DNA from: Lingula anatina
Lineage: Eukaryota > Animalia > Brachiopoda
Direction of reading: 5' to 3'
Length of the DNA: 64,000 bases
Assembly: GCA_051362555.1 (NCBI GenBank)
Contig: CM120641.1
Span: 48,986,401-49,050,400 of the forward strand
In this document: in pieces, positions 1,553-64,000 of the stretch
Numbering within the stretch: position 1 is the first letter of the stretch
How the letters are laid out: each line of letters begins with the position of its first letter
Notes under the pieces: generated by a model
Database searches by the model: none
What the model saw: the letters and a program-made list of their open reading frames with translations, nothing else
What the model was told of the DNA's origin: nothing
Translations under genes and position numbers: made by a program

Positions 1553-1632
1553 GCTTTTGTGAGTCCACACACAACTTTTATGTCGCCAGATGCATGCTCA
1601 AGTGTGGACATGAACTGTGTCATGTGCAATTT

Positions 1633-1735
1633 AATTTAAAGATTAAACGAGACTTACCTGTAAGTTGAAGTTTGATTGGAATTTAACTCTCATCTGGATC
1701 ATTTGAGGGATTATACGAGATATGCGTGCGCCTGC
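1633..1735 (-). repeat. DIRS1 3' (right) ITR plus terminal extension
   Basis: 1680-1735 is an imperfect inverted copy of 6477-6529. 1633-1717 is a perfect inverted copy of 1783-1867. Confidence 0.92.
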
Positions 1736-1782: not shown

Positions 1783-1902
1783 CGTATAATCCCTCAAATG
1801 ATCCAGATGAGAGTTAAATTCCAATCAAACTTCAACTTACAGGTAAGTCTCGTTTAATCTTTAAATTTAACTCTCATCTGATCATTCGGGATTCTACGAG
1901 AT
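1783..1902 (-). repeat. DIRS1 internal complementary region (ICR)
   Basis: 1783-1867 is complementary to 1633-1717 and 1864-1902 is complementary to 6491-6529. The two halves overlap at AATT 1864-1867. Confidence 0.93.
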
Positions 1903-1998: not shown

Positions 1999-3228
1999 TC
2001 ACAGTTTTTCAAGCACTGAAAAAGCAAAACTAGTATTCTGTGATACTGTTGGTTTGTTATAAAACCTAGAAAAGGTATTGTTGTTACTCCAACCAGCTGT
2101 ACGTAAAATGGTACTGAGTGGAATATTGGCAGCAAAAGCTTTACTAGTAGAAGCTGCACGTGTGCTATGTGCTTTAAACACACTTGTATCCACTCCAGCC
2201 TTTAACATGACTGTCTTTATCCATCTAGCAATCGTATCCTTTTTTACAGGATTAAAAGGTCTGTTGTAACTAAGAAAAAGTTGTGAAACACCACTACTTC
2301 TATATTTGCTAGTTCTAATTAAATATTCATGTAACACATTCAACACACAGAGTCTGCTGTTCTCTGGGAAACCAGGTAAGTTTATGATTGGCTGATCTTT
2401 TGTTGGCCTAGACTGTTTAACTAATGCATCAATTAAAAAAGCCACTCCTGTGTCAGTTTTTAACACTGTTTTAAGGTTCATGAGATGAATTGATTGACAT
2501 CTTTGTCCTGATATCAGTGCCACCAACATAACTAGTTTGAGTGTTAGATCTTTGTCTGAAAGTTCTGAAACTGGTGATAATTTCTCTAGGTATGCTAATA
2601 CAATATTTGTATCCCATGTGGTTTGGTATCTGGGAAAAGAAGGTCTGCTGTGAAATACACCTTTGATGAAACGCTTGATGAGCTGGTTAGATCCAAGTGT
2701 TGAGGAATCTTTCAGTTGCACAAAAGCTGATAAAGCAGATCTTGCAGTGCAAATGGCACTGTAATTAAGACCAGCTTCAAACAGTTCAGTGAGAAATCCT
2801 AATATTTGTGGCACACTTGGCTGAAAGGGATCATAATTGAGTTTAGTGCAGTAATTAATCCATTTTTTGATGTAGGTGTTGTACTGTTTTCGTGTGCCAG
2901 TCCGCCAAGATTGCATAATAATGTCTTGAGTTTTGCCTGAAATACCCTTTTCTTGTAAGCTTTTCCCGATAACAAACATGCCATCAGCCTCATCTTGTCT
3001 GACAGTGGGTGCACCTCCCCTTTTTTGTGCGGAAGGCTCAGGATTTTGTGTGTTGGCGGCAACAGCACTGGTTCTCTGTAGAGCATCTGAAGGAGGACTG
3101 GGAACCATGGCTGTGTGGCCCACAGTGGAGCTATCAGCAAGATGTCGGCCTGGTCTGTCTGCAGCTTCTGAAGGACCTGATTCAGCATACTGAAAGGAGG
3201 AAATGCATAGTTTAAGTTTACAGACCAA
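1999..3228 (-). CDS. DIRS1 tyrosine recombinase
   Basis: SWRTGTRKQY N-domain; catalytic-type motifs GQRCQ, KQSR, HSTR, AGWS and FSRFY. Overlaps the pol 3' end by 430 nt and has no ATG at the ORF start. Confidence 0.93.
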   Translation of the reverse strand: MVCKLKLCISSFQYAESGPSEAADRPGRHLADSSTVGHTAMVPSPPSDALQRTSAVAANTQNPEPSAQKRGGAPTVRQDEADGMFVIGKSLQEKGISGKTQDIIMQSWRTGTRKQYNTYIKKWINYCTKLNYDPFQPSVPQILGFLTELFEAGLNYSAICTARSALSAFVQLKDSSTLGSNQLIKRFIKGVFHSRPSFPRYQTTWDTNIVLAYLEKLSPVSELSDKDLTLKLVMLVALISGQRCQSIHLMNLKTVLKTDTGVAFLIDALVKQSRPTKDQPIINLPGFPENSRLCVLNVLHEYLIRTSKYRSSGVSQLFLSYNRPFNPVKKDTIARWIKTVMLKAGVDTSVFKAHSTRAASTSKAFAANIPLSTILRTAGWSNNNTFSRFYNKPTVSQNTSFAFSVLEKL

Positions 3229-4895
3229 GACTGCTGAAAAGCATCTATTGCAAGTGCATGGGGGTCTGGTTTCCAGGCATAATAAAGTTCTGTCTTATGA
3301 TTCAACCTGGAGGCAAACATGTCAACAGAAGGTCTCCCAAGGAATGCAGCTAAATGCTCAAAAATAGAGGGGGATAAAGACCATTCTGTCCTATCATTAA
3401 AATATCTGCTATGTTTGTCTGCCACAACATTAAGGACACCTGGGATGTGAGTTGCTGAGAGCCAAATGGCTTGTTTAATTGCCCACTTCCAGATAGAAAG
3501 GGTGATCTCATTACATTCACTAGAATGGGTGCCTCCCATATTTCTTATGTATGCAACAGCAGTAGTATTATCCATCTGTAACTGTACATGTTTTCCACAA
3601 ATGTCCTTTAAAAAATTGATATGTTTAGTCATTTCACATTTCTGCCATCTACCCCCTGTTGTGGACTCTTGTAACACTGCACCCCATCCCATTTTTGATG
3701 CATCTGTCTGAATAATACAGTCAGGATTGGGGCGTCTTAGATTTTTTGCCAAGTTGATGTTATCTATCCACCATACTATGTCTGTGATTGCCTTGTTACT
3801 AAAAATCATATGTGCATCAAAATTACCCCTGTTTTTCTTAAGGGCTACAATTTTATCCATTTCCAGGGACCTGTAGTGTAGTTCCCCATATTGTACCCCA
3901 GGTAAAGCTGAAACTAGGGAACCTATCAACTGTGCACCTTGCCTAATTGTGCATTTATGCTTTTTCATTCTGTCCATTAATTTTGAAACAATGTTAGCCC
4001 TTCTCTCTGAAGTGAGCATAACTGTCATTGACCTAGAGTTCAAGGTAAAGCCCAAGTGGTCCATAATTTGAACAGGAACTAGTGTGGACTTTTGTTCATG
4101 AATAACAAAACCCAATTTCGATAGTAATTGCACAGTTTCTCTAACATTCTCCTCACAAGCTTCCTTAGTTTCACCTTGTAAATATAGGTCATCCAAGTAA
4201 ATGCTGGAAATGTATGCTTTTGACCTTAATTGTGCCAAAACTGGTTTAAGAAGCTTAGTCCAGATTCTGGGTGCAGAGGCTAGTCCATTTGGAAGTGCAA
4301 CATATGAAAAAAGACTGCCTTTCCATCTAACTTTAAGGTATTTCTGAAATTCTGGAGCTACAGGGACAGAGTAGTAAGCATGCTTCAGATCCAGTGAAGC
4401 TAAATAACAATTTGGAGTCATAAGATTTAGACAAGTTTGCACCGTGTCCATTTTAAAATGATGGTATTTTATACAAGAGTTCAATTTTCTCAAGTTAAGA
4501 ATCATCCTATGGGTGCCATCCTTTTTTGGCCTGAGAAAAATGGGAGAAACAAACTGTCCTGGTTCCTCATTAGAGGATATGATGACACCTTTGTCAAGCA
4601 ATTTTTTAATTTCTGAATCCACAATAAGCTGTTCTGCTGAACTAAAGTTTAAGCTGTTAGGCTCAAAATCTTGTACAGGTTGTTCTGTAAAGTCTAACTT
4701 GACCCCTACAACATAAGAGAGTATCACTGGATCTGAAGTCAACTTCTGCCATTCAAGAAGAGACTGTTTTATATTACCAGCAACAAAAGGTTGACTTACA
4801 TGAGTATTTCCTAATACTCTTTCTTCTGGAACTTTTTCTCTGTCCAGTTTTTCCTGTTGTTCTGTTGACTTCTCTGGTTCTTCCCTCCTAAAAAA
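2799..4895 (-). CDS. DIRS1 pol: reverse transcriptase, RNase H (in-frame deletion) and Dam-like methyltransferase domain
   Basis: LDLKHAY, LPNGLASAP, YLDD, TDAS, DNTTAV, HIPG..N..AD, then DMFASRLN and YAFPPF. The frame is open without ATG from just above the slippery site at 4889-4895 and is -1 relative to gag. Confidence 0.93.
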   Translation of the reverse strand, partial: FFRREEPEKSTEQQEKLDREKVPEERVLGNTHVSQPFVAGNIKQSLLEWQKLTSDPVILSYVVGVKLDFTEQPVQDFEPNSLNFSSAEQLIVDSEIKKLLDKGVIISSNEEPGQFVSPIFLRPKKDGTHRMILNLRKLNSCIKYHHFKMDTVQTCLNLMTPNCYLASLDLKHAYYSVPVAPEFQKYLKVRWKGSLFSYVALPNGLASAPRIWTKLLKPVLAQLRSKAYISSIYLDDLYLQGETKEACEENVRETVQLLSKLGFVIHEQKSTLVPVQIMDHLGFTLNSRSMTVMLTSERRANIVSKLMDRMKKHKCTIRQGAQLIGSLVSALPGVQYGELHYRSLEMDKIVALKKNRGNFDAHMIFSNKAITDIVWWIDNINLAKNLRRPNPDCIIQTDASKMGWGAVLQESTTGGRWQKCEMTKHINFLKDICGKHVQLQMDNTTAVAYIRNMGGTHSSECNEITLSIWKWAIKQAIWLSATHIPGVLNVVADKHSRYFNDRTEWSLSPSIFEHLAAFLGRPSVDMFASRLNHKTELYYAWKPDPHALAIDAFQQSWSVNLNYAFPPFSMLNQVLQKLQTDQADILLIAPLWATQPWFPVLLQMLYREPVLLPPTHKILSLPHKKGEVHPLSDKMRLMACLLSGKAYKKRVFQAKLKTLLCNLGGLAHENSTTPTSKNGLITALNSIMIPFSQVCHKY

Positions 4896-6313
4896 GAACC
4901 AGCTTTTTTGTTGTCATAGCGAGCTGTTGCCCTTGTAGGAAATACCCTGGGTTTGGAGAAGATATTTGTGGGTCTAGGGCGTGCTATTTTCTTCTGAACC
5001 TTGTTAGAGATTTTTAGGCCTTCTTCAATATCCTTCATATTTGCATCCAAATTGTCACCAAACAGCTCCTTGGTGACAGGATTCTGTGGGGAAGCCAAAG
5101 CTTTGTATTTCTCATTAATGTCTGGTTTGGCGAGTTCTCTGCGAAACATAGAAATGTCATGTACAACTGCAGCAAGGATGCTGAATCCGTCTGTCATCTT
5201 TGCTAGCAATGTTTCAGGAGAAGGCACATCTCCTTCTCCTTCAAGGTGTTTAGAACAAGCATCAGCTATCTCCAGGAAGGGTGTAAGTCCATGGAATATG
5301 TTGGTTTGCCAGTTTTGCATTATCTTGTCATTATATTTGGTTAAAGGTCTCAGTGTTCCCCACAGTCTCTGGTTACATTTGATCTGAGTCATGTAGGTAC
5401 AGTTCTCAGGTGGGTGATAAAGTTTCACCATATCCTCCAGAACTTCCTTAGGCATACCCTTGTACAAAACAGTGTTCATGATTTTAGCAACATCATCATG
5501 AACTTTCGGGCCTCTAACTTCATCATTAGTCACTGCAGCCAAAATGTTTTTCAAACATTGTAAGCCCTGAGGCTGACTGACCTGAGTTTCTGAGGGTTTT
5601 TCCTTAGCAGGACTGTCACTGCTATCACTGTCAGCATTACTATCATCATTGGCAGGAGTAGAACGAAAGTAAGATTCCTCATACAGGGATTCCTCATCAT
5701 CTGACAAAATAAGCCTCTGTCTCTTCTCTGGGGGCTCACCATCCTGGTCGCTATTTATACTAGCATCGTACGCACGTTTAAGTTCCGATACGACAGGAGT
5801 AAGAGACGCTAGCATCTGTTGAATATTACACATTTGCTCCTTCATGTCGTTCATATCTTTTTGTACCTCACGAGAGCTCACTGAATGGTCACTGAATGAC
5901 TTGGAGTAGTTTCCATGCGAGCGTGAGCTCCGGCTACTTCTAGGACCATGGGCGCTGCCATCATGTGTAGCCGACTTGTTAGATTTGTTGTTCGGGTCGT
6001 CACGTGACTCCGAATCTGCCTCGTGTACGGAGGTTTCCGAAGGAATTGCATCCTTGGAATTTAGGTTTTTTCCATGGGAGCCTGCACCGTCCGTGAAGCT
6101 GACGTCCTTTGTCAGCTTTGCTCTTTTGCTATAAGCAGAGCTCGGGGTTCTTAGTCTTTTACCCCTATTACCACTAGATTTGGTTGTGGTAGTCGATTTT
6201 TCTGAGCCAGCATCCTTTGCTGAAGCCCGCTCTGCGCCACTCTGGCTTGCCTCAGCCTGAGCAATAATAGCGCCAACTAAGTCGCTTTGCAGTCCGGTCT
6301 GAGCCGACGACAT
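4811..6313 (-). CDS. DIRS1 gag-like ORF1 (500 aa)
   Basis: First ATG ORF after the left ITR, with a low-complexity N-terminus and PPENC, RRE...P and LFGDNL segments typical of DIRS ORF1. Confidence 0.85.
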   Translation of the reverse strand: MSSAQTGLQSDLVGAIIAQAEASQSGAERASAKDAGSEKSTTTTKSSGNRGKRLRTPSSAYSKRAKLTKDVSFTDGAGSHGKNLNSKDAIPSETSVHEADSESRDDPNNKSNKSATHDGSAHGPRSSRSSRSHGNYSKSFSDHSVSSREVQKDMNDMKEQMCNIQQMLASLTPVVSELKRAYDASINSDQDGEPPEKRQRLILSDDEESLYEESYFRSTPANDDSNADSDSSDSPAKEKPSETQVSQPQGLQCLKNILAAVTNDEVRGPKVHDDVAKIMNTVLYKGMPKEVLEDMVKLYHPPENCTYMTQIKCNQRLWGTLRPLTKYNDKIMQNWQTNIFHGLTPFLEIADACSKHLEGEGDVPSPETLLAKMTDGFSILAAVVHDISMFRRELAKPDINEKYKALASPQNPVTKELFGDNLDANMKDIEEGLKISNKVQKKIARPRPTNIFSKPRVFPTRATARYDNKKAGSFLGGKNQRSQQNNRKNWTEKKFQKKEY

Positions 6314-6476: not shown

Positions 6477-6529
6477 GCAGGCGCACGCATATCTCGTAGA
6501 ATCCCGAATGATCAGATGAGAGTTAAATT
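6477..6529 (-). repeat. DIRS1 5' (left) ITR
   Basis: Inverted match to 1680-1735 and to the ICR 1864-1902. Confidence 0.92.
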
Positions 6530-11407: not shown

Positions 11408-14400
11408 CTATCGTGGTGCAGCCATACAAGCAGGGGGTTTACCAGCATGGAACTCTTCAATACACAGGTGACAACTCCAGCTCCCTGGAATGAACACATA
11501 ACATTATCTCAGTGATTTATTTTAAACATAAGTATTTTAGAAGCAAATAAAGGTCATTTAGATTTGGGATTGTAAGCTGATTGTTCGTAATGATAGTGAA
11601 CTGATGTATTTCACTCGCTGAATGCACTATTTGTGTGGTATTTGTCATTTTATCTTAAATTTCTCAATACACAGCTTTCTTTTGTACTATTTCTACTCAG
11701 AAATGGTTTATCAATCTGATGGAAAACGTAATGCATGTGACTGCTGATTTAAAACATTGGTCTCTATAAGTTCTGTAAGATCTTAACATTCCATGCAAGT
11801 TTATTCTTCCATCTCCAACTAACCATGTCCACTAAAAATGAATGCCTATTGTTAATCCTTTCATACTGGCATTGCACTACCAGAAGAATTCTCATAATTT
11901 TTAAAAGTACATAAGTTTTGGCAATGTTGCTTACCCTCTGGAGGTTCAGATAGAGGGGGTGATAGGCAGTACATGTGATAGCCTCTGTCACAGTCGTCAC
12001 AAAACAGGAGTTGATCCTGGAATAATTAACAAATGAGATATACTATGAATAAGTAACATAAGAAAAAGAAAGTAATGATCAAATAAAAACATGAGCATTT
12101 AAACTTTGAAACGAAGCAAAAGTTTCCTCACTCAGAACAAATATTAAATTCAATTTCATTATTGAAACAAGTGGGACAGGACAACAACAGGACAGATACC
12201 AAAACAGATGAATAAAGAAGTCCTACACCACTACTACACTACTACTTACACCATTCAAGCCATTATAAAATCTGGGGAGTCTAAGCATAAAGTCTTATTT
12301 TCAAGTTATTGCTCAGTGCTTTAAAACTTTGTGTCTCAAGCACAAACACTTACATCATTATCAGATGTACCACATAAACCACAAACACTTACATCATTAT
12401 CAGATGTACCACATAAACCACAAACACTTACATCATTATCAGATGTACCACATAAACCACAAACACTTACATCATTATCAGATGTACCACATAAACCACA
12501 AACACTTACATCATTATCAGATGTACCACATAAACCACAAACACTTACATCATTATCAGATGTACCACATAAACCACAAACACTTACATCATTATCAGAT
12601 GTACCACATAAACCACAAACACTTACATCATTATCAGATGTACCACATAAACCACAGGACTTGCACTCTATACACTGCCAGGGATACTTCTTTACTGACA
12701 CTATCATATTCTCTGTAAACTGAAGACAGGTTGGATGGCCTGAAAGATTGAACAATCAAAATTGATCATCTTAGCTTTTGTCGAAGAAGACTTTTTTCTC
12801 AAATCCCTTAAAGTAATGTATGAAAGAAAGCTAAAGCATAAAACAAGTTGGTCTTAAGACCACAATAAAACTAAAACGTGAATTACATGTACATTTGATT
12901 ATTTCAATTTTTAATTTGACACTAATAACGCAACTAATGTTTTTCCTTTCTAAAGAAGGAAGTACATAACTTTTTGGGGGTATGAGACTGCCATTTGGTG
13001 AAAAAGCCAGAAAATATGGCAAAGGGTTCAGGGGCCACTTAGGCCAATGATATTTTTGGCTCCCAAAAAGTCAGAGATCTGCCGATAGTCGGAAAAATCT
13101 CATCCTTGCTTATCTCACAGCTGGCACTATAAACAATAGGATAATTTCACTTGTTTTTTTGCTTACACACATACAGGGGTTTATTATATCTCGGCTACAC
13201 CCTGATATATTTACGCTCCTGTATGTATTATAAAAGACATATGTCCCTAGACCAGTCTTCTTACCTGATCTGCCACAGTCGGCACACGATACCAGCTCCT
13301 CCGACACCTTGGTTTTCTTGTTGAACGTTTCATCGCCCAGACAGAAGTCACAGTAGTTGTTTGGGGAGTTCTTGTGGCGGCCAGATTTTGTACCTGACGG
13401 GGCAGTGCTAGTTCCAGCTGGAAGAAAACCAGGTCACAAAAATTTGAGTAAAACAAAAATAAACCATCTCAATAGCTTTTCAAGATGTTTCATGTCTAGG
13501 ATCACATATCCAACACCAAATATCTATGAAAATATAACATGTGGTTTGTTAAGCTTACCTTTCCAGTACACTTGTTTAAAAATTAATTTCTACTAGTTTA
13601 TTACCTTCAAACTGACATCACTGAATTATTGAAAGTTGCTATCAATTCAGTTGTATAAAAATACTTCATGCTTCACATTGTTATGGGCATAAAATTGGGC
13701 AAAAATCAAGCAAATATTGTAAGGCAACAAAGGTCAGCTTTATGTAAATCGGACAAGCTTTCTGAATGAAAACAAACATGATAAGAAGCAGATAAACAAT
13801 ATTGTATAGCAGTCTAACTTGTAAGTTATACCTCTACAAGCAAAACCCTATGTTATGCAGCTGTTTAGTTGTGTATATTAAGGTTATACATTATATTAGA
13901 AAAAAAAGGTATAATCCATAAGTTCCTGTTATAACTTTCATCAGTTGGCCAAAGTTTTCCAAATCTGTAAGAAGCCCATGATATTGCAAAGAAGTGAAAA
14001 TATTACAACTACTGAACAAATACATATAGTCTGTACCATGTCCTATATAAGAAATTAAAATAGAAGCGCATGTGCCTTTTATGTTATACTGTGGAAGTTT
14101 AGGGTGCCCAATGTCAAAATCATAAAAAAATGTTTGTACATAATAATAAAGACAAGAAAATATGGAAGTGTTTTGAATCATTGCTGCGCCTAAACCTCAT
14201 TAAATTTTACTAACATTCCTAACATGCAAGAAATGTACATTTTAGTGATGACACAAGACAATAACAACTATAATCATGAATAAAAAATGGACATAGACAA
14301 GAAAGTGTGTAAACAAGAGATGACAGGACTGAAATGATGTTGACAATGGAAATGACCTGACTGCACTTACTACTGTAAAACTGTCACTTAGCAGTCATCT

Positions 14401-17400: not shown

Positions 17401-19935
17401 ACATTTGTCAAACTCATTTTATTTGCTGAATTAATCAGATTCCTTTACTTCCTATAACAACAAAATCAAAAGCATTAAAAACCTTTTTCTTCTTCTTTTT
17501 CACATAGGTCTCTTCATAGTCACTATAATCAGATTGGTTGTCAATCTCTCCAGCATCTGGTGGTTCACTGATCTCCTCATAGTCATCATACCATGTCTCC
17601 TTCAGGGCAATGTCTGTAGACACAAAGTCAGAGCTGGCTGTATGCACATTGGAGCTAGAGTTCTCATCTTCATCTTTCCTGGCTGCTGGGTTCTCTATAG
17701 TACTGATCTGGTGCATATCTGGCAAATATAATAATTATAATAAATTATAAGTAACAGTCAGAGAGGACATATCATTCATCATTAATTCTACTTTATTTAA
17801 ATTTATGCTTTTTAATCAATCTTTCCTTTTCTTTTACTAGCGTTTTATTTTCTATTCTTTCTAGCCTTTTGTTTTCTATATTTTCTATTGTTAAGTCCAC
17901 TGAACATAATTGGACTTTAGACTCTAAATGCATATCATTATCGCAACAAATCAACACGTGTACAATAATGAGCTCATCCAATCGACTGAAAAAAGAGTTA
18001 ACTGGAGGACCATGATTGTTGCTGCCTGCACCAGGCCTGACACACTGATGATGATTATTATACATGCTAGAAATCCTTACCATCTAAGACATAGATGCAA
18101 TTAGCCACTGAAGGCATAGGAAAACAGTTTGCCAGGGATTAAAGTTTTTCATATTAATAACAGCTTTATCTGTTTTAACTGTAAAACCCACCTGCTTCTC
18201 CAGTCTCTAAGTCTGTGACCTTGGTAATACTGATTTAACAATAAAACCCACCTGCTTCTCCAGTCTCTATGTCTGTGACCTTGGTAATACTGATTTAACA
18301 ATAAAACCCACCTGCTTCTCCAGTCTCTATGTCTGTGACCTTGGTAATACTGATTTAACAATAAAACCCACCTGCTTCTCCAGTCTCTATGTCTGTGACC
18401 TTGGTAATACTGATTTAACAATAAAACCCACCTGCTTCTCCAGTCTCTATGTCTGTGACCTTGGTAATACTGATTTAACAATAAAACCCACCTGCTTCTC
18501 CAGTCTCTATGTCTGTGACCTTGGTAATACTGATTTAACAATAAAACCCACCTGCTTCTCCAGTCTCTATGTCTGTGACCTTGGTAATACTGATTTAACA
18601 ATAAAACCCACCTGCTTCTCCAGTCTCTATGTCTGTGACCTTGGTAATACTGATTTAACAATAAAACCCACCTGCTTCTCCAGTCTCTATGTCTGTGACC
18701 TTGGTAATACTGATTTAACAATAAAACCTACCTGCTTCTCCAGTCTCTATGTCTGTGACCTTGGTAATACTGATTTAACAATAAAACCCACCTGCTTCTC
18801 CAGTCTCTATGTCTGTGGCCTTGGTAATACTGATTTCTTCCAGAGGCACAGCTCGCTTTTTCTTCCTCCACCGTTTGGCAGGGTATGAATAGATCTGGCC
18901 AGCACGGGTCCCTGAAATCACAGCATCACAGAGTTTTCATTATATCAAAATCATATTCAAATTATGAGATCTCAAGGCTCTTAATTCTTATAATTACATT
19001 GAAAATTTAAAAATCATTAAGCCCTGACAATTTCTCTTATATAATTTTAAAAGTTAAAGATGACATCTTCCACATTTTCTTGACTACACAGGCACCCTAC
19101 CTGGCATTCTCTGTCTGTAACTGACCCATAGATTACTACACAGGCACCTTACCTGGCATTCTCTGTCTCTAACTGACCTATAGATTACTACACAGGCACC
19201 TTACCTGGCATTCTCTGTCTGTAACTGACCCATAGATTACTACACAGGCACCCTACCTGGCATTCTCTGTCTGTAACTGACCCATAGATTACTATGTCTT
19301 TGTGCCACTGCAGTATTGGAGTCAACATATGGCAGTCGCATCTGACTTTCCAAATACAATCTGCTGTTGTAACTGGCAGCATTTTCTATGGCCTCCTTGT
19401 ACAACTGCTCTGGGGACAACGGAACCACAGGCAAACTGAAATACAACAAAACCATGTGAGGCGCATGTGGCATTGATGTGCAGGTTGCAATGCTGTATAC
19501 CGCACATTTATAATTTACATGCAGCATTGCAATATATGACTCTCTTTACTTTACAAGTCTTTACAGAGGCGTATGGCTTAAATGTGAAATGACACTGAAC
19601 GGCTGTTTCAGTTATCAAATTAGACAACATAAACAACAAACAACACCCCTAAAATGCATACTACTAACAATATAATGATATAGCAAATTGACTCAGAAAT
19701 AACTCATAATTGGATAAAAGATATTTTTATTCATGAGGTGATGAGTGGCATTGGGTATTCGGTGTTTCCCTTTAAAAATAGTCAAAATAAGAACAATTGA
19801 AAAACCCAACTGATCATGCTTATGGTATAATGTGAAAAACTCATACTTTTACCAATCACATGTCATGACTACAGCGAAAAACGAACATTAAAGACATCTA
19901 TACCTGGAACCTTTGTTTCGTGCAGGAGTAGCCAT
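11408..19935 (-). CDS. DPF2: d4-family zinc finger protein (requiem/ubi-d4, BAF45-like). Exons 19935-19904, 19435-19257, 18911-18792, 17718-17483, 16887-16800, 16235-16116, 13417-13265, 12739-12627, 12016-11935, 11484-11408
   Basis: Requiem N-domain ([15 protein letters not shown]...RLPYVD...[16 protein letters not shown]), a C2H2 finger ([17 protein letters not shown]) and a double PHD (YCDFCLG...[15 protein letters not shown]...WQCIECKSC...[18 protein letters not shown]...WSCHLC). Which DPF1/2/3 paralog it matches cannot be resolved. Confidence 0.93.
12341..12655 (-). repeat. 39-bp x8 perfect tandem array spanning the DPF PHD2 exon donor
   Basis: Unit GTTTATGTGGTACATCTGATAATGAT|GTAAGTGTTTGTG, open in the exon frame ([13 protein letters not shown])n. 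Confidence 0.95.
18183..18836 (-). repeat. 60-bp x11 tandem array spanning the DPF exon 3 donor
   Basis: Unit is the exon end ...GGAGAAGCAG plus GTGGGTTTTATTGTT. One copy has GTAGGT. Confidence 0.95.
19083..19293 (-). repeat. 52-bp x4 tandem array spanning the DPF exon 2 donor
   Basis: Unit AGTAATCTATGGGTCAGTTACAGACAGAGAATGCCAG|GTARGGTGCCTGTGT. Confidence 0.93.
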
Positions 19936-43300: not shown

Positions 43301-46300
43301 ATATCATATAATTATAAGCAGCATAAGTGTTACATCATCTGTTTCAGCAACTGCGTAAGTATACTGACCCTGAGCACCCAGACTATTACTACCTGGAGTC
43401 CGCCTTGGATTGTCTGGGGCACTTCTTGGCTCAGCTGAACAACTCCATTGAGCACTCCATGCAGCTGGTGGGGCTGGACGGGGGTGGGGCCAAACAACAC
43501 AGGTAAGGACACTTGAACTGAAGTGGGGGGTGGAAGGGAAAAACAACACTGGTATGGTGTAGTTTGTTACACATTAGCTGCATTTGAAAGTGATGTTAAA
43601 TGAAAAAAAAAAAACGTCAGGATGTGTTTATACTTGGCATTTAAATCCAATATTTGTTGAGTGGGCAATTTTATAACATTTTCTATAATCTTTTGTAATT
43701 AAAAGCCTTTCAGCTGTTACAATTTGTTTTAGCTGATTTTGGTTTTCATTTCTAAATGTCCTATCATCTCTGTGACAGGAAGCAGAGAAATGCAGCCAGT
43801 CTGCGCAGGTCCAGCTCTAGCAGCCATGATGGTTTTCCTCTGTCCAGTACGACCAGGGACAGCGGTGTCCACTCTGTAGTAGACACACACGGAGGCAGGA
43901 GGTCAGTGGCTCTGCTTTGACCAGTGTGATGATGGGTGTGCCAGTGTGCTGTCATCTTAACTAACACAATCAGAGTGTGATGATGGGTGTGCCAGTGTGC
44001 TGGCATCTCAACTAACACAATCAGAGTGTGATGATGGGTGTGCCAATGTGCTGGCATCTCAACTAACACAATTGGTTTGAAGCTTGTTTTATTTGAGTGG
44101 AATTGATTGGAAGATTCCACATTTAAAATGCTCTTGAAAGTAAATTTTAGAGTTATTAGTACCACCAGCGTGTACGCTGGCGGTACTCATGGTTTTAGTC
44201 CCGACCCGTCTCGTCCGGCTCCGCCGGCTCCGCCGGCTCCGTTGGCTCCGCCGGCTCCGCTGGCTCCGTAAGCTCCGCCGGCTCCGCGTACTGGCGCCGG
44301 ATACAAGTCACCGTTACCGCTTCTCCTCCTAGACCACAAGGACCCCTGTCCCCATCTCTTGGATTTAGGTCACATATAACCTCAACTTGAACCCCCAGGT
44401 TTTTTTGTCTCAGTCGGTGCATTGACCTGGGCGTGACGCTCGTTGCAATGCACCCTTGTCAAAATTTTTGAAAATTCAATGCCAATTATCTACCCTACGG
44501 AAGGAATTATGGGAAAAATTTCTACAGACGGCTTTCCAAAAGTCATATGTGTAGATTTCAAATATGCCCTTGGATTTGACCTTTGACCTTTATTTCAAGG
44601 TCAAACGGGCCAAAATTTTCAAAAAAATGAAATTTTTTACGAAAAAAAATATTATTTGCACTGTTATTCAGACACTACACAGACTTAACCAATAATTATA
44701 TTGGAAAGTGTTACCCTTTGGGTCATCTTTCATCTCCATGAATTTGGGGTCAATCGGTGCATTTTCTTGGGAGTAGCGGCCATAAGATACCGAAACTAAA
44801 AACTGTCTCTAATTCAGGAACCGTTAATGCTAGCGACCCGTTCTTTTTTGCATTATGTAGAGCATGTAAAGCCCAACACTGAGAGTGGTCTCCGTTTTTT
44901 TTGTATTTCAAAGGGTTTTCGTGTTATGCTGTATTAAAAAGTACTTTGTGGTGGCACATTATTGTAACTCGGAATTGTAACATTTAGTCCCTTATATCTC
45001 CAAAACTGGCAGAGGTGGTCAATAGTTATTATTTAAGTTGAATAGGAAGTCATTTACTTGGAATCTAGATGTGACCTTGAAATTGACCTTTGACCTACTT
45101 TTCACTATGAACTGAACTTTGCAAATTTTTGTTCCGTTTAATCTCCAAAACTGGCAGAGATAGGTCCATAGTTACAGTTGAACTTGAATAGGAAGTCATT
45201 AGAGGCAATTTACTCTGACCTTGACGTTGACCTTTGACATACTTTTTATCATGAACTGAACTTTGCAAATTTTTGTTCCCTTTTATCTCCAAAACTGGCA
45301 AAGATTCGCCCATAGTTACTATTGAATTTGATTAGAAAGTCATTAGAGACAATTTATTGTGACCTTAAAATTGACCTTTGACCTACTTTTCACCATGAAC
45401 TGAACTTTGCAAATTTTCATTCCCTTTTATCTCCAAAACTGGCAGAGATAGGTCCATAGTTACTATTGAACTTGAATAGGAAGTCATATACTGGCAATCT
45501 AAGTGTGACCTTGAAATTGACCTTTGACCTACTTTTCATCATGAATTGAACTTTGCAGATTTTCTTTCCCTTTTATCTCCAAAACTGGCAGAGATAGATC
45601 CATAGTTACTATTGAACTTAAATAGGAAGTCATATACTGGCAATATACTGTGACCTTTAAATTGACCTTTGACCTTCCTTTTACTATGAACTGAACTTTG
45701 CAAATTTTCGTTCACCTTTATCTCCAAAACTGACAGAGATAGGTCCATACTTACTATTGAACTTGAATAGGAAGTAATACACTAGCAATCTGTGACCTTG
45801 AAATTGACCTTTGACCTACTTTTTATGATGAACTGCTTTTTGCATGTTTTCTGGCCTTTAAATCTGCAAAATTGGCAAAGAAATGCCCATGGTTGCTATT
45901 GAACTTGAATAGAAATTCATATACTATGATATTGAAATTGACCTTTGACCTACTTTTTCACCATGAACTGAGCTTTGCATATTTTCTTGCCTCTCATATC
46001 TTTAAAACTAGCAGAGATGTGCCCATTGTTTCCCCAAGGTTTTCTCTTTTGTCAGCATATATGCACCATTGACAACACATTTCAAACCAATAGGCCTTTT
46101 GTCTAGAGAATACAGTAGTGATCAAGGGTAGGAAAATGCAAGTCAATTCGAAAATCTGCTTGATTGTACCATTTTTAGTTATATTTTTTTGCATATTTTG
46201 AGAACTCTTGTTGATTGCATCTTATAGAGCTTCTCAAACACAAGACTGGTGATGGTGTCCCTTTTAGGAGGGGGGGGTCCATACGAATGCGCTTACTCCA

Positions 46301-62664: not shown

Positions 62665-63230
62665 CTGTAATAAGACAAACAAGCTCTGTTACATGGACCA
62701 TTTAAATGCAAATGATACTTATTTTTCTGATGAAAAAAAATGAGCTGCTCTGAAAAGATGAAGAATAGCAAGACCATCCCAAACCCTACAGTTTATGCAG
62801 TAATGAGATACAGGGAGTAAGAAAATATCCAAACCAATTTATTGAGACCACCTGCTGTTCATTACCATGAAATAGTCACTGTGTGGCTTTTTAAGTTCTT
62901 CATGCTTAAAACTTCTCAAATATGTAATAATATATATTCTATGCAATTGCAAAGTGAGCAATGCATGCTCCAATTCAATGGCATATATCAAAACATGCTT
63001 ACTTTTTTGTGCTGAAATCAATTTTCAAAGCTTTAAAGTTATGCATGTGGAATATCATATGCATAAAAGTCCTATCTGCCCAACACAAGAATTGTATTTA
63101 ATAAATACATCCTTAGATTATCCTCTAGTCAGTCTACAGAGATCTTTATATTGGAAACCAGAACTCAATGGAACTCAAGCTATGCTGTGGTAGCTATTGC
63201 ATATTACATAATTCCACCAAGTGGTAAATT

Positions 63231-63742
63231 TGCCTTGAGTAACTGACAATGTTCCCAATGCCTGTTTATTTTTAATATGCCTTGAGTAACTGACAATGTT
63301 CCCAATGCCTGTTTATCTTTAATATGCCTTGAGTAACTGACAATGTTCCCAATGCCTGTTTATCTTTAATATGCCTTGAGTAACTGACAATGTTCCCAAT
63401 GCCTGTTTATCTTTAATATGCCTTGAGTAACTGACAATGTTCCCAATGCCTGTTTATCTTTAATATGCCTTGAGTAACTGACAATGTTCCCAATGCCTGT
63501 TTATCTTTAATATGCCTTGAGTAACTGACAATGTTCCCAATGCCTGTTTATCTTTAATATGCCTTGAGTAACTGACAAGGTTCCCAATGCCTGTTTATTT
63601 TTAATATGCCTTGAGTAACTGACAAGGTGCCCAATGCCTGTTTATTTTTAATATACCTAGAGTAACTGACAATGTTCCCAATGCCTGTTTATTTTTAATT
63701 TGCCTTGAGTAACTGACAAGGTGCCCAATGCCTGTTTATTTT
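63231..63742. repeat. 47-bp x11 minisatellite in a CACNB intron
   Basis: Unit TGCCTTGAGTAACTGACAATGTTCCCAATGCCTGTTTATCTTTAATA. Confidence 0.95.
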
Positions 63743-64000
63743 TCACCAACAAACCTCTCTGTAATGAGAAACTTAAGTGCAACCTTTCTCCAAACAAGTT
63801 GTACAGGAAAAAAATTCCAGATATTTTTTATAAATACATATCACACATGCAGTTGCAATAATATTTCCCTGTCTTAACTTCAGAACAATCAAATGCAGCA
63901 AATGTTGTGCAGCAAAATGCAAATATTACTGCCTCAATTCTTCAACACAAAAAACATGCATCAAGTTGACACGACAACCAGTATTTTCAAAACATATTGA

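Follow-up and report, generated by a model that had tools for sequence, protein, structure and literature searches.

The stretch of DNA considered here, referred to as the window, comprises 64,000 nt of the genome of the brachiopod Lingula anatina (assembly GCA_051362555.1, contig CM120641.1, forward-strand positions 48,986,401 to 49,050,400). On its minus strand, at about 6526-1630, it carries a DIRS1-like retrotransposon of 4.9 kb, which is delimited by inverted ends, an internal complementary region (ICR) and an empty-site joint. Three open reading frames (ORFs) are found on this strand: a gag-like ORF, a pol ORF in the -1 frame relative to gag and a tyrosine recombinase (YR) ORF in the -1 frame relative to pol. 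Based on this copy and its relatives, it is very probable that the RNA of this clade gives Gag, Gag-Pol and Gag-YR, by means of a likely -1 frameshift combined with a predicted splice.

Coding regions and predicted expression signals of the Lingula copy

The coding regions of the element and the signals predicted within them are as follows (window positions).

4811..6313, minus strand: gag-like ORF1 of 500 aa, from the ATG at 6313 to the stop TAG at 4813-4811
2799..4913, minus strand: pol ORF (reverse transcriptase (RT), RNase H, MT-like region) of 704 aa from stop to stop, -1 to gag
3294-1999, minus strand: YR ORF, -1 to pol and overlapping it
1999..3189, minus strand: YR exon of 396 codons, a variable linker of ~68 aa followed by the tyrosine recombinase (Phage_integrase match; weak match to Cre)
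4889..4895, minus strand: predicted -1 slippage site, T TTT TTA, a strict heptamer match in the phase of gag
4847..4853, minus strand: further candidate slippage site, non-canonical, with G AAA AAC in the phase of gag
4800..4889, minus strand: predicted 30-codon transframe peptide common to Gag-Pol and Gag-YR, from the open -1 frame
4794..4802, minus strand: predicted splice donor CAT/GTAAGT (the slash marks the splice site) in pol phase 0, first intron base 4799, 11 nt past the stop of gag
3190..4799, minus strand: predicted 1610-nt intron running through RT and RNase H as far as the middle of the MT-like domain
3190..3204, minus strand: predicted splice acceptor made up of the codons for F-P-P-F-S, TTTCCTCCTTTCAG, ending at 3190, in YR phase 0

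The initial annotation had described a donor at a pol codon boundary just past the gag stop, an acceptor that doubles as the FPPF codons and an intron joining the two in matching phase, and all three were located precisely as described, with reading restarting after the acceptor at a YR codon boundary (TAT GCT GAA). Its observation that neither pol nor YR begins with ATG holds for both ORFs, with the qualification that the YR frame contains internal ATGs at 3108 (GCCATGG) and 2979, upstream of the conserved part of YR. The first methionine of pol is situated at residue 137 (4505), ~94 aa beyond the first conserved motif of the protein.

Conservation of the signals in related families

Relatives were collected by alignment of Pol, which yielded 108 loci. 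Pol was intact by motif in 51 of the 109 sequences (loci plus window), which formed 38 groups at 80% identity; after removal of the divergent and mis-anchored L101, 37 rows remained, i.e., 36 related families (relatives of roughly 40-52% identity in Pol) and the window copy. The 58 left-out loci were scored later as a held-out check. Splice scores were derived from our own simple weight matrices rather than from trained models. The tree used below is a quick version, and its tips included no named DIRS1 reference element. A search of a viral-contig collection found no relatives of the element. The loci L081-L108 are DIRS-like retrotransposons within contigs of bacterial and archaeal metagenome-assembled genomes, many of them in a single Sedimenticola genome, and most likely represent eukaryotic carry-over.

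At the predicted acceptor, the serine following the FxPF motif is encoded by AGY in 30 of 32 families, as compared with 434 of 1759 serines throughout pol. Stops in the YR frame, which number 19-80 per 30-nt bin, fall to 0-5 exactly at the FxPF AG, and from this AG through the ~68-codon linker the YR frame is open in all 28 scored AG-bearing families (0.9 expected under synonymous shuffling); no YR-frame stop was seen in these linkers, where shuffling gave 89.7. Three families were excluded from linker scoring, L048 for ending early and L050 and L085 for a missing anchor motif. Of 36 best acceptors, every one falls in YR phase 0, as against 61 of 180 in control windows. In seven families without the AG, a pyrimidine-YAG is found instead at +12, +12, +135, +135, +138, +210 and +213; all of these relocated acceptors are in phase 0, and none of them precedes the last YR-frame stop. 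Since acceptor relocation requires five changes on the tree, of which at least three are forced, the phase has been re-established more than once. Nine of 34 families have no ATG at all in the YR frame ahead of the conserved domain. Among the held-out loci, 31 of 43 matches to the FxPF motif are followed by the AG, and the misses include elements with long ORF overlaps, which are treated below.

A donor scoring >3 is present within the 130 nt upstream of the first Pol motif in 32 of 37 families, a score reached in only 33 of 408 pol windows and 29 of 265 gag windows used as controls. The best donor falls in phase 0 of pol in 31 of 32 families, whereas chance donors fall mostly in phase 1 (7/25/1), and the held-out loci exhibited a donor scoring >3 in 18 of 22 cases, every one in phase 0. 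In all 31 families with an intact gag and a donor score >1.5 (L013 and L101 left out), the donor lies 2-41 nt beyond the gag stop. Stops within roughly 50 nt of a junction escape junction-dependent nonsense-mediated decay, and the donor position would place the gag stop inside this zone. The phase of the donor carries less weight than the acceptor data, because it could be inherited. Acceptor and donor phases agree in 33 of 34 families, so that the conservation of donor, acceptor and phase match, for which the initial annotation had called, is observed; the predicted introns of the relatives measure 1649-1952 nt.

The gag-pol overlap contains a strict heptamer (XXXYYYZ) in the phase of gag in 28 of the 31 families with an intact gag. 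The two other phases gave 6 and 4 such cases, and 17 of 313 windows from the body of gag contained one. Two of the three families without a strict heptamer, L031 and L081, carry TTTTTTG (the third, L043, is discussed below). The dominant heptamers, TTTTTTA and AAAAAAC, are two unrelated forms (U6A and A6C) that swap on the tree, with four changes needed and at least two forced. We infer -1 frameshifting from these conserved signals. As judged by sequence comparison, the conservation of the frameshift and splice signals across the relatives is far above chance.

A joined frame of the predicted kind was identified among 120 YR homologues. In P0145, a protein from Logan contigs, residues 1-39 align to L070 1264-1371 (69%) and residues 40-436 to L070 3075-4265 (87%). 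The predicted donor of L070 is at 1372 and its first exon-2 base at 3075; the join in P0145 thus coincides with the exact predicted exon ends, and the counterpart of the transframe peptide is joined to YR. An apparently spliced product with precisely the boundaries anticipated by the initial annotation exists in assembled contigs of a related family. The join was present in 5 of the 10 members read from this cluster (14 in total). A RefSeq model from Stylophora pistillata, P0254, uses the same acceptor into YR with a different donor, and further transframe-YR joins are suggested by P0380 (34 members, many from Logan) and by the Haliotis rubra model P0262, P0309 and P0257 being ambiguous in this respect. 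For the N-termini of P0380, P0262, P0309 and P0327, no convincing genomic parent was found among the loci or Pol matches.

Expression model and competing explanations

In the proposed model, normal termination at the gag stop would yield Gag (500 aa in this copy). Slippage by -1 on unspliced RNA would give Gag-Pol of about 1171 aa, while the same slippage on RNA spliced free of the RT-RNase H region would give Gag-YR of about 901 aa. Frameshifted ribosomes would thus translate the 30-codon transframe peptide and then either Pol or the flexible linker and YR. As the donor is situated just past the gag stop, the same Gag would be made from both RNAs. Co-assembly with Gag, to whose particles YR may in this way be tethered, would carry the recombinase to the complementary DNA. 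Frameshifting and splicing might together also set the RT:YR ratio, as suggested in the initial annotation. Overall, the expression interpretation put forward in the initial annotation is supported.

A number of observations weigh against this model. A hairpin with z below -1.5 lies downstream of the heptamer in fewer than half of the families (14 of 30; controls, 5 of 30), and no stimulatory hairpin follows it in the Lingula copy (z -0.2, in a pseudoknot-free model). In L043, which carries AAAAAAC, a stop in the -1 frame intervenes between heptamer and donor. A good donor is missing from L083, the best donor of L027 is in phase 1 with a phase-0 donor 4 nt away, and L085 has kept the AG and exhibits YR-frame stops downstream. 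P0327, read by hand at the protein level, seems to join the +1 frame of gag to YR, a misfit unless an indel is invoked. The P0145 contigs may represent either RNA or a processed DNA copy; both would imply that a splice took place at some time.

RNA reads bearing the species label were also considered. Six of nine such runs (X1, X2, X4, X5, X6 and X7) were sampled, with 6-25% of each read. The coding region was covered to a depth of 0-9, to which diverged copies contributed much. The 4799->3190 junction was not listed in any of the six runs; as a joint requires 3 reads, this result speaks neither for nor against the splice at such depth. Further points against the model come from the same runs. 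In X6, a trace depth (0.09, ~6 letters) extends beyond the donor into the intron, and reads from the pol region do occur. A sister copy represented in X1, X4 and X5 diverges, by hand reading, past window position 4865 for ~50-100 letters or more; its gag is open and its -1 frame has stops after the U6A site, and a second, similar A-run was read by hand where the -1 frame reopens. The slippage site used in this family may accordingly be either T TTT TTA or G AAA AAC. The pol-poor coverage of X2 and X4 was considered as a sign of splicing and rejected, as finer bins contained no reads ending at the acceptor.

Among the alternatives, a real splice could be combined with a frameshift used for Pol only, with YR translated on its own, unfused, from an internal ATG through reinitiation or leaky scanning after gag. 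The two YR-frame ATGs of this copy would suit such a scheme, and in 25 of 34 families at least one ATG of the YR frame precedes the conserved SW motif, commonly by ~23 or 66-72 residues. It is nevertheless unlikely, given the nine families in which that ATG is missing, the frame that is open all the way from the acceptor, and the relocated acceptors that stay in phase 0. A scheme in which the pol and YR frames are entered through an extra upstream splice, the T-run and AG at 4895-4888 serving as its acceptor, has a still smaller chance of being correct. It can draw on the acceptor-like appearance of TTCTTTTTTAG in this copy and on the T-run lacking a following hairpin; against this, about one-third of the families have, in the same place and phase, AAAAAAC, which offers no AG, roughly half possess a GC-rich hairpin a few bases downstream, and the RNA runs, of low depth, listed no upstream joint. 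Readthrough of the gag stop in this clade was likewise considered and rejected: the stop codon varies (TAG, TAA, TGA) in no shared context, and spliced RNA would then be read into the MT tail instead of YR.

That the splice chiefly gives rise to deleted derivatives that are non-coding or not autonomous, or serves to lower the expression of RT, with the fusion being incidental, is very improbable. The joined frames are known solely as predicted proteins from assembled contigs, possibly processed DNA copies, which would fit such derivatives; the open YR frame from the acceptor onward, the repeated phase matching and the presence of YR in families with no ATG would be left unexplained. Least credible of all is the notion that the signals are by-products of protein constraint (the FPPFS motif and Val-Ser codons) in the absence of any splicing. 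Phenylalanine and proline codons do force a polypyrimidine tract, and a donor phase can be inherited once Pol needs an open frame. The AGY bias and the relocated acceptors argue against it, as do long-overlap elements that keep the FPPF motif with no AG, and P0145 largely refutes it. The combination of a -1 frameshift and a splice choosing between Pol and YR thus remains the preferred explanation.

The long-overlap elements point to a second route to a Gag-YR product. The glutamine derived from the acceptor is present in only 1 of 17 proteins whose YR frame extends at least 200 residues upstream along pol, as compared with 18 of 22 proteins with a short overlap (p = 2e-6); the FPPF motif is the same in the long-overlap elements and the AG is absent. 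In five of seven distant loci, gag and a YR ORF of ~1000 codons share one frame and are separated by a single TAG, with pol in +1 (junctions at L101 2545-2549, L102 2388-2392, L103 2183-2187, L105 1584-1588 and L106 2938-2942); all five are contigs of one assembly, and L106 has Ns at the junction. Donor-like GT motifs occur near the TAG in some long-overlap loci, and P0378 is a single ORF of 1290 aa that matches both gag and YR. These findings suggest that Gag-YR is a general product, reached in long-overlap elements by readthrough or a short splice. With the balance of evidence leaning slightly in its favor, the DIRS1-like group may make YR as a Gag fusion by two routes, the widespread short-overlap clade by -1 frameshift and splice and long-overlap elements by placing YR in the gag frame behind a single TAG or in one ORF. 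If true, the split between long and short overlaps in the literature would correspond to a split in expression mechanism.

Element architecture, known systems and significance

The terminal features of the element are the following.

6477..6529, minus strand: left terminal repeat, the left end of the element being near 6526
1630..1735, minus strand: right terminal repeat with right extension, defined by repeat matches
1783..1902, minus strand: ICR, complementary to both element ends

Positions 6491-6529 form a perfect (100%) inverted match to 1864-1902, and 1783-1870 is 99% complementary to 1630-1717. In addition, 6498-6477 is complementary to 1735-1714, i.e., inverted terminal repeats with divergent outer parts are present. 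No direct repeat of at least 25 nt, as expected for the split direct repeats of Ngaro- or PAT-like elements, was found at the element ends among the 20 of 39 repeat families listed. Four reads of one RNA run (X4) span an empty-site joint, 1632->6526, with four ambiguous letters; this joint is consistent with insertion at a short matching sequence with no target-site duplication. The same reads suggest that some alleles or individuals do not carry the insertion. A 35-nt piece of the terminal repeat and ICR (1867-1901, 6492-6526) was also found inside an abundant poly(A) transcript originating elsewhere (100-180 reads in X1 and X2).

A Pfam search of the ORF1 protein returned zero matches, and the name gag refers to its position only. 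Within pol, RVT_1 was matched (E = 3e-20), along with an RNase H-like match below the cut-off. The MT-like region contains DMFASR, FPPF and QPWF, which we take to be the motifs of the MT domain; Pfam gave no match to it in the protein of this copy, and PF05869 is carried by many homologues of this Pol. YR matches Phage_integrase above the cut-off (E = 9e-8) and Cre weakly (E = 0.0013), and its residues R, H-x-x-R, W and Y are invariant across 23 sequences. Apart from RT, the RNase H-like match and Phage_integrase, the Pfam search of the element proteins found no further family, including neither a protease nor a DDE integrase. An in-frame deletion of 13 codons at about 3615-3608 (minus strand) affects the RNase H of this copy and removes a Glu that all 36 other families possess, because of which the copy is probably non-autonomous; the initial annotation had overlooked this damage.

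Next to the end of the DIRS1 element, a fragment of a second YR retroelement is found at 3-1417 on the plus strand, with an RNase H ORF followed by a start-less YR ORF, Ngaro-like by layout. It contains a strong acceptor-like pyrimidine tract with a CAG ending at 578, in phase 1 of its YR frame. Tandem arrays are located elsewhere in the window (12260-12727, 18050-18949, 63133-63837 and 44983-46016), their units measuring 39, 60 and 47 nt, alongside a family of ~144 nt.

The heptamers predicted here have well-known counterparts in U UUU UUA of HIV-1 and A AAA AAC of MMTV. Gag-Pol frameshifting in retroviruses and Ty3/Gypsy elements uses the same heptamers in the same phase, often with a downstream hairpin. 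Retroviruses, however, carry integrase within Pol and have the env splice donor upstream of gag, whereas the splice predicted here lies downstream of the frameshift and would select which enzyme follows. In Ty1/Copia elements, a conserved alternative splicing of retrotransposon RNA likewise balances the proteins; it yields a Gag-only subgenomic RNA and involves no frameshift and no fusion to a second enzyme (Oberlin et al., 2017, PMC5580714).

By its inverted termini, ICR, size of about 4.9 kb, gag, RT-RNase H (with an MT-like region) and YR ORFs and pol-YR overlap, all of which agree with published descriptions, the element is a new member of the known DIRS1-like superfamily (Piednoel et al., 2011, PMC3266345; Gazolla et al., 2021, PMC9210276). 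In their accessible portions, these two papers describe ORF overlaps with no route of expression, and the string “splic” occurs 0 times, whereas a frameshift site and a phase-matched intron are present here; long ORF overlaps are recorded in half of 28 elements, with no mechanism given in the text available (PMC3266345). For Ngaro, a frameshift from RT to YR was proposed by Poulter and Butler (2015), as quoted in PMC13003380. The excerpted descriptions of Ngaro-like elements likewise show a YR with no clear start in -1 to pol (PMC13003380). Their proposed RT/RNase H-to-YR frameshift would give Pol-YR, whereas YR would here be joined to Gag by a splice that skips Pol. The present model was not found in the open-access literature, namely in the consulted portions of PMC7192593, PMC13003380, PMC9210276, PMC4157794, PMC9341512, PMC5633606, 10.1101/2022.06.16.496473, PMC3266345, PMC3783388, PMC6681497, PMC2685390 and PMC3950715; a prior mention in Poulter and Butler (2015), in papers by Goodwin and Poulter or in Repbase annotations is possible. 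The expression strategy is well supported and apparently undescribed, and a -1 frameshift followed by a splice choosing between Pol and YR is a layout unreported for other retroelements in the open literature searched.

How the two start-less, overlapping ORFs of DIRS1 elements are expressed appears to be unanswered in the accessible literature, and the model offers a precise and testable answer, with junctions predicted for dozens of families. It would supply numerous candidate sites of -1 frameshifting in the genomes of animals and provide a case of a protein motif, FPPFS, that doubles as a splice acceptor. The real proteins of these elements would be redefined as Gag-Pol and Gag-YR, which is relevant to the study of the recombinase or to the rebuilding of DIRS integration in vitro.

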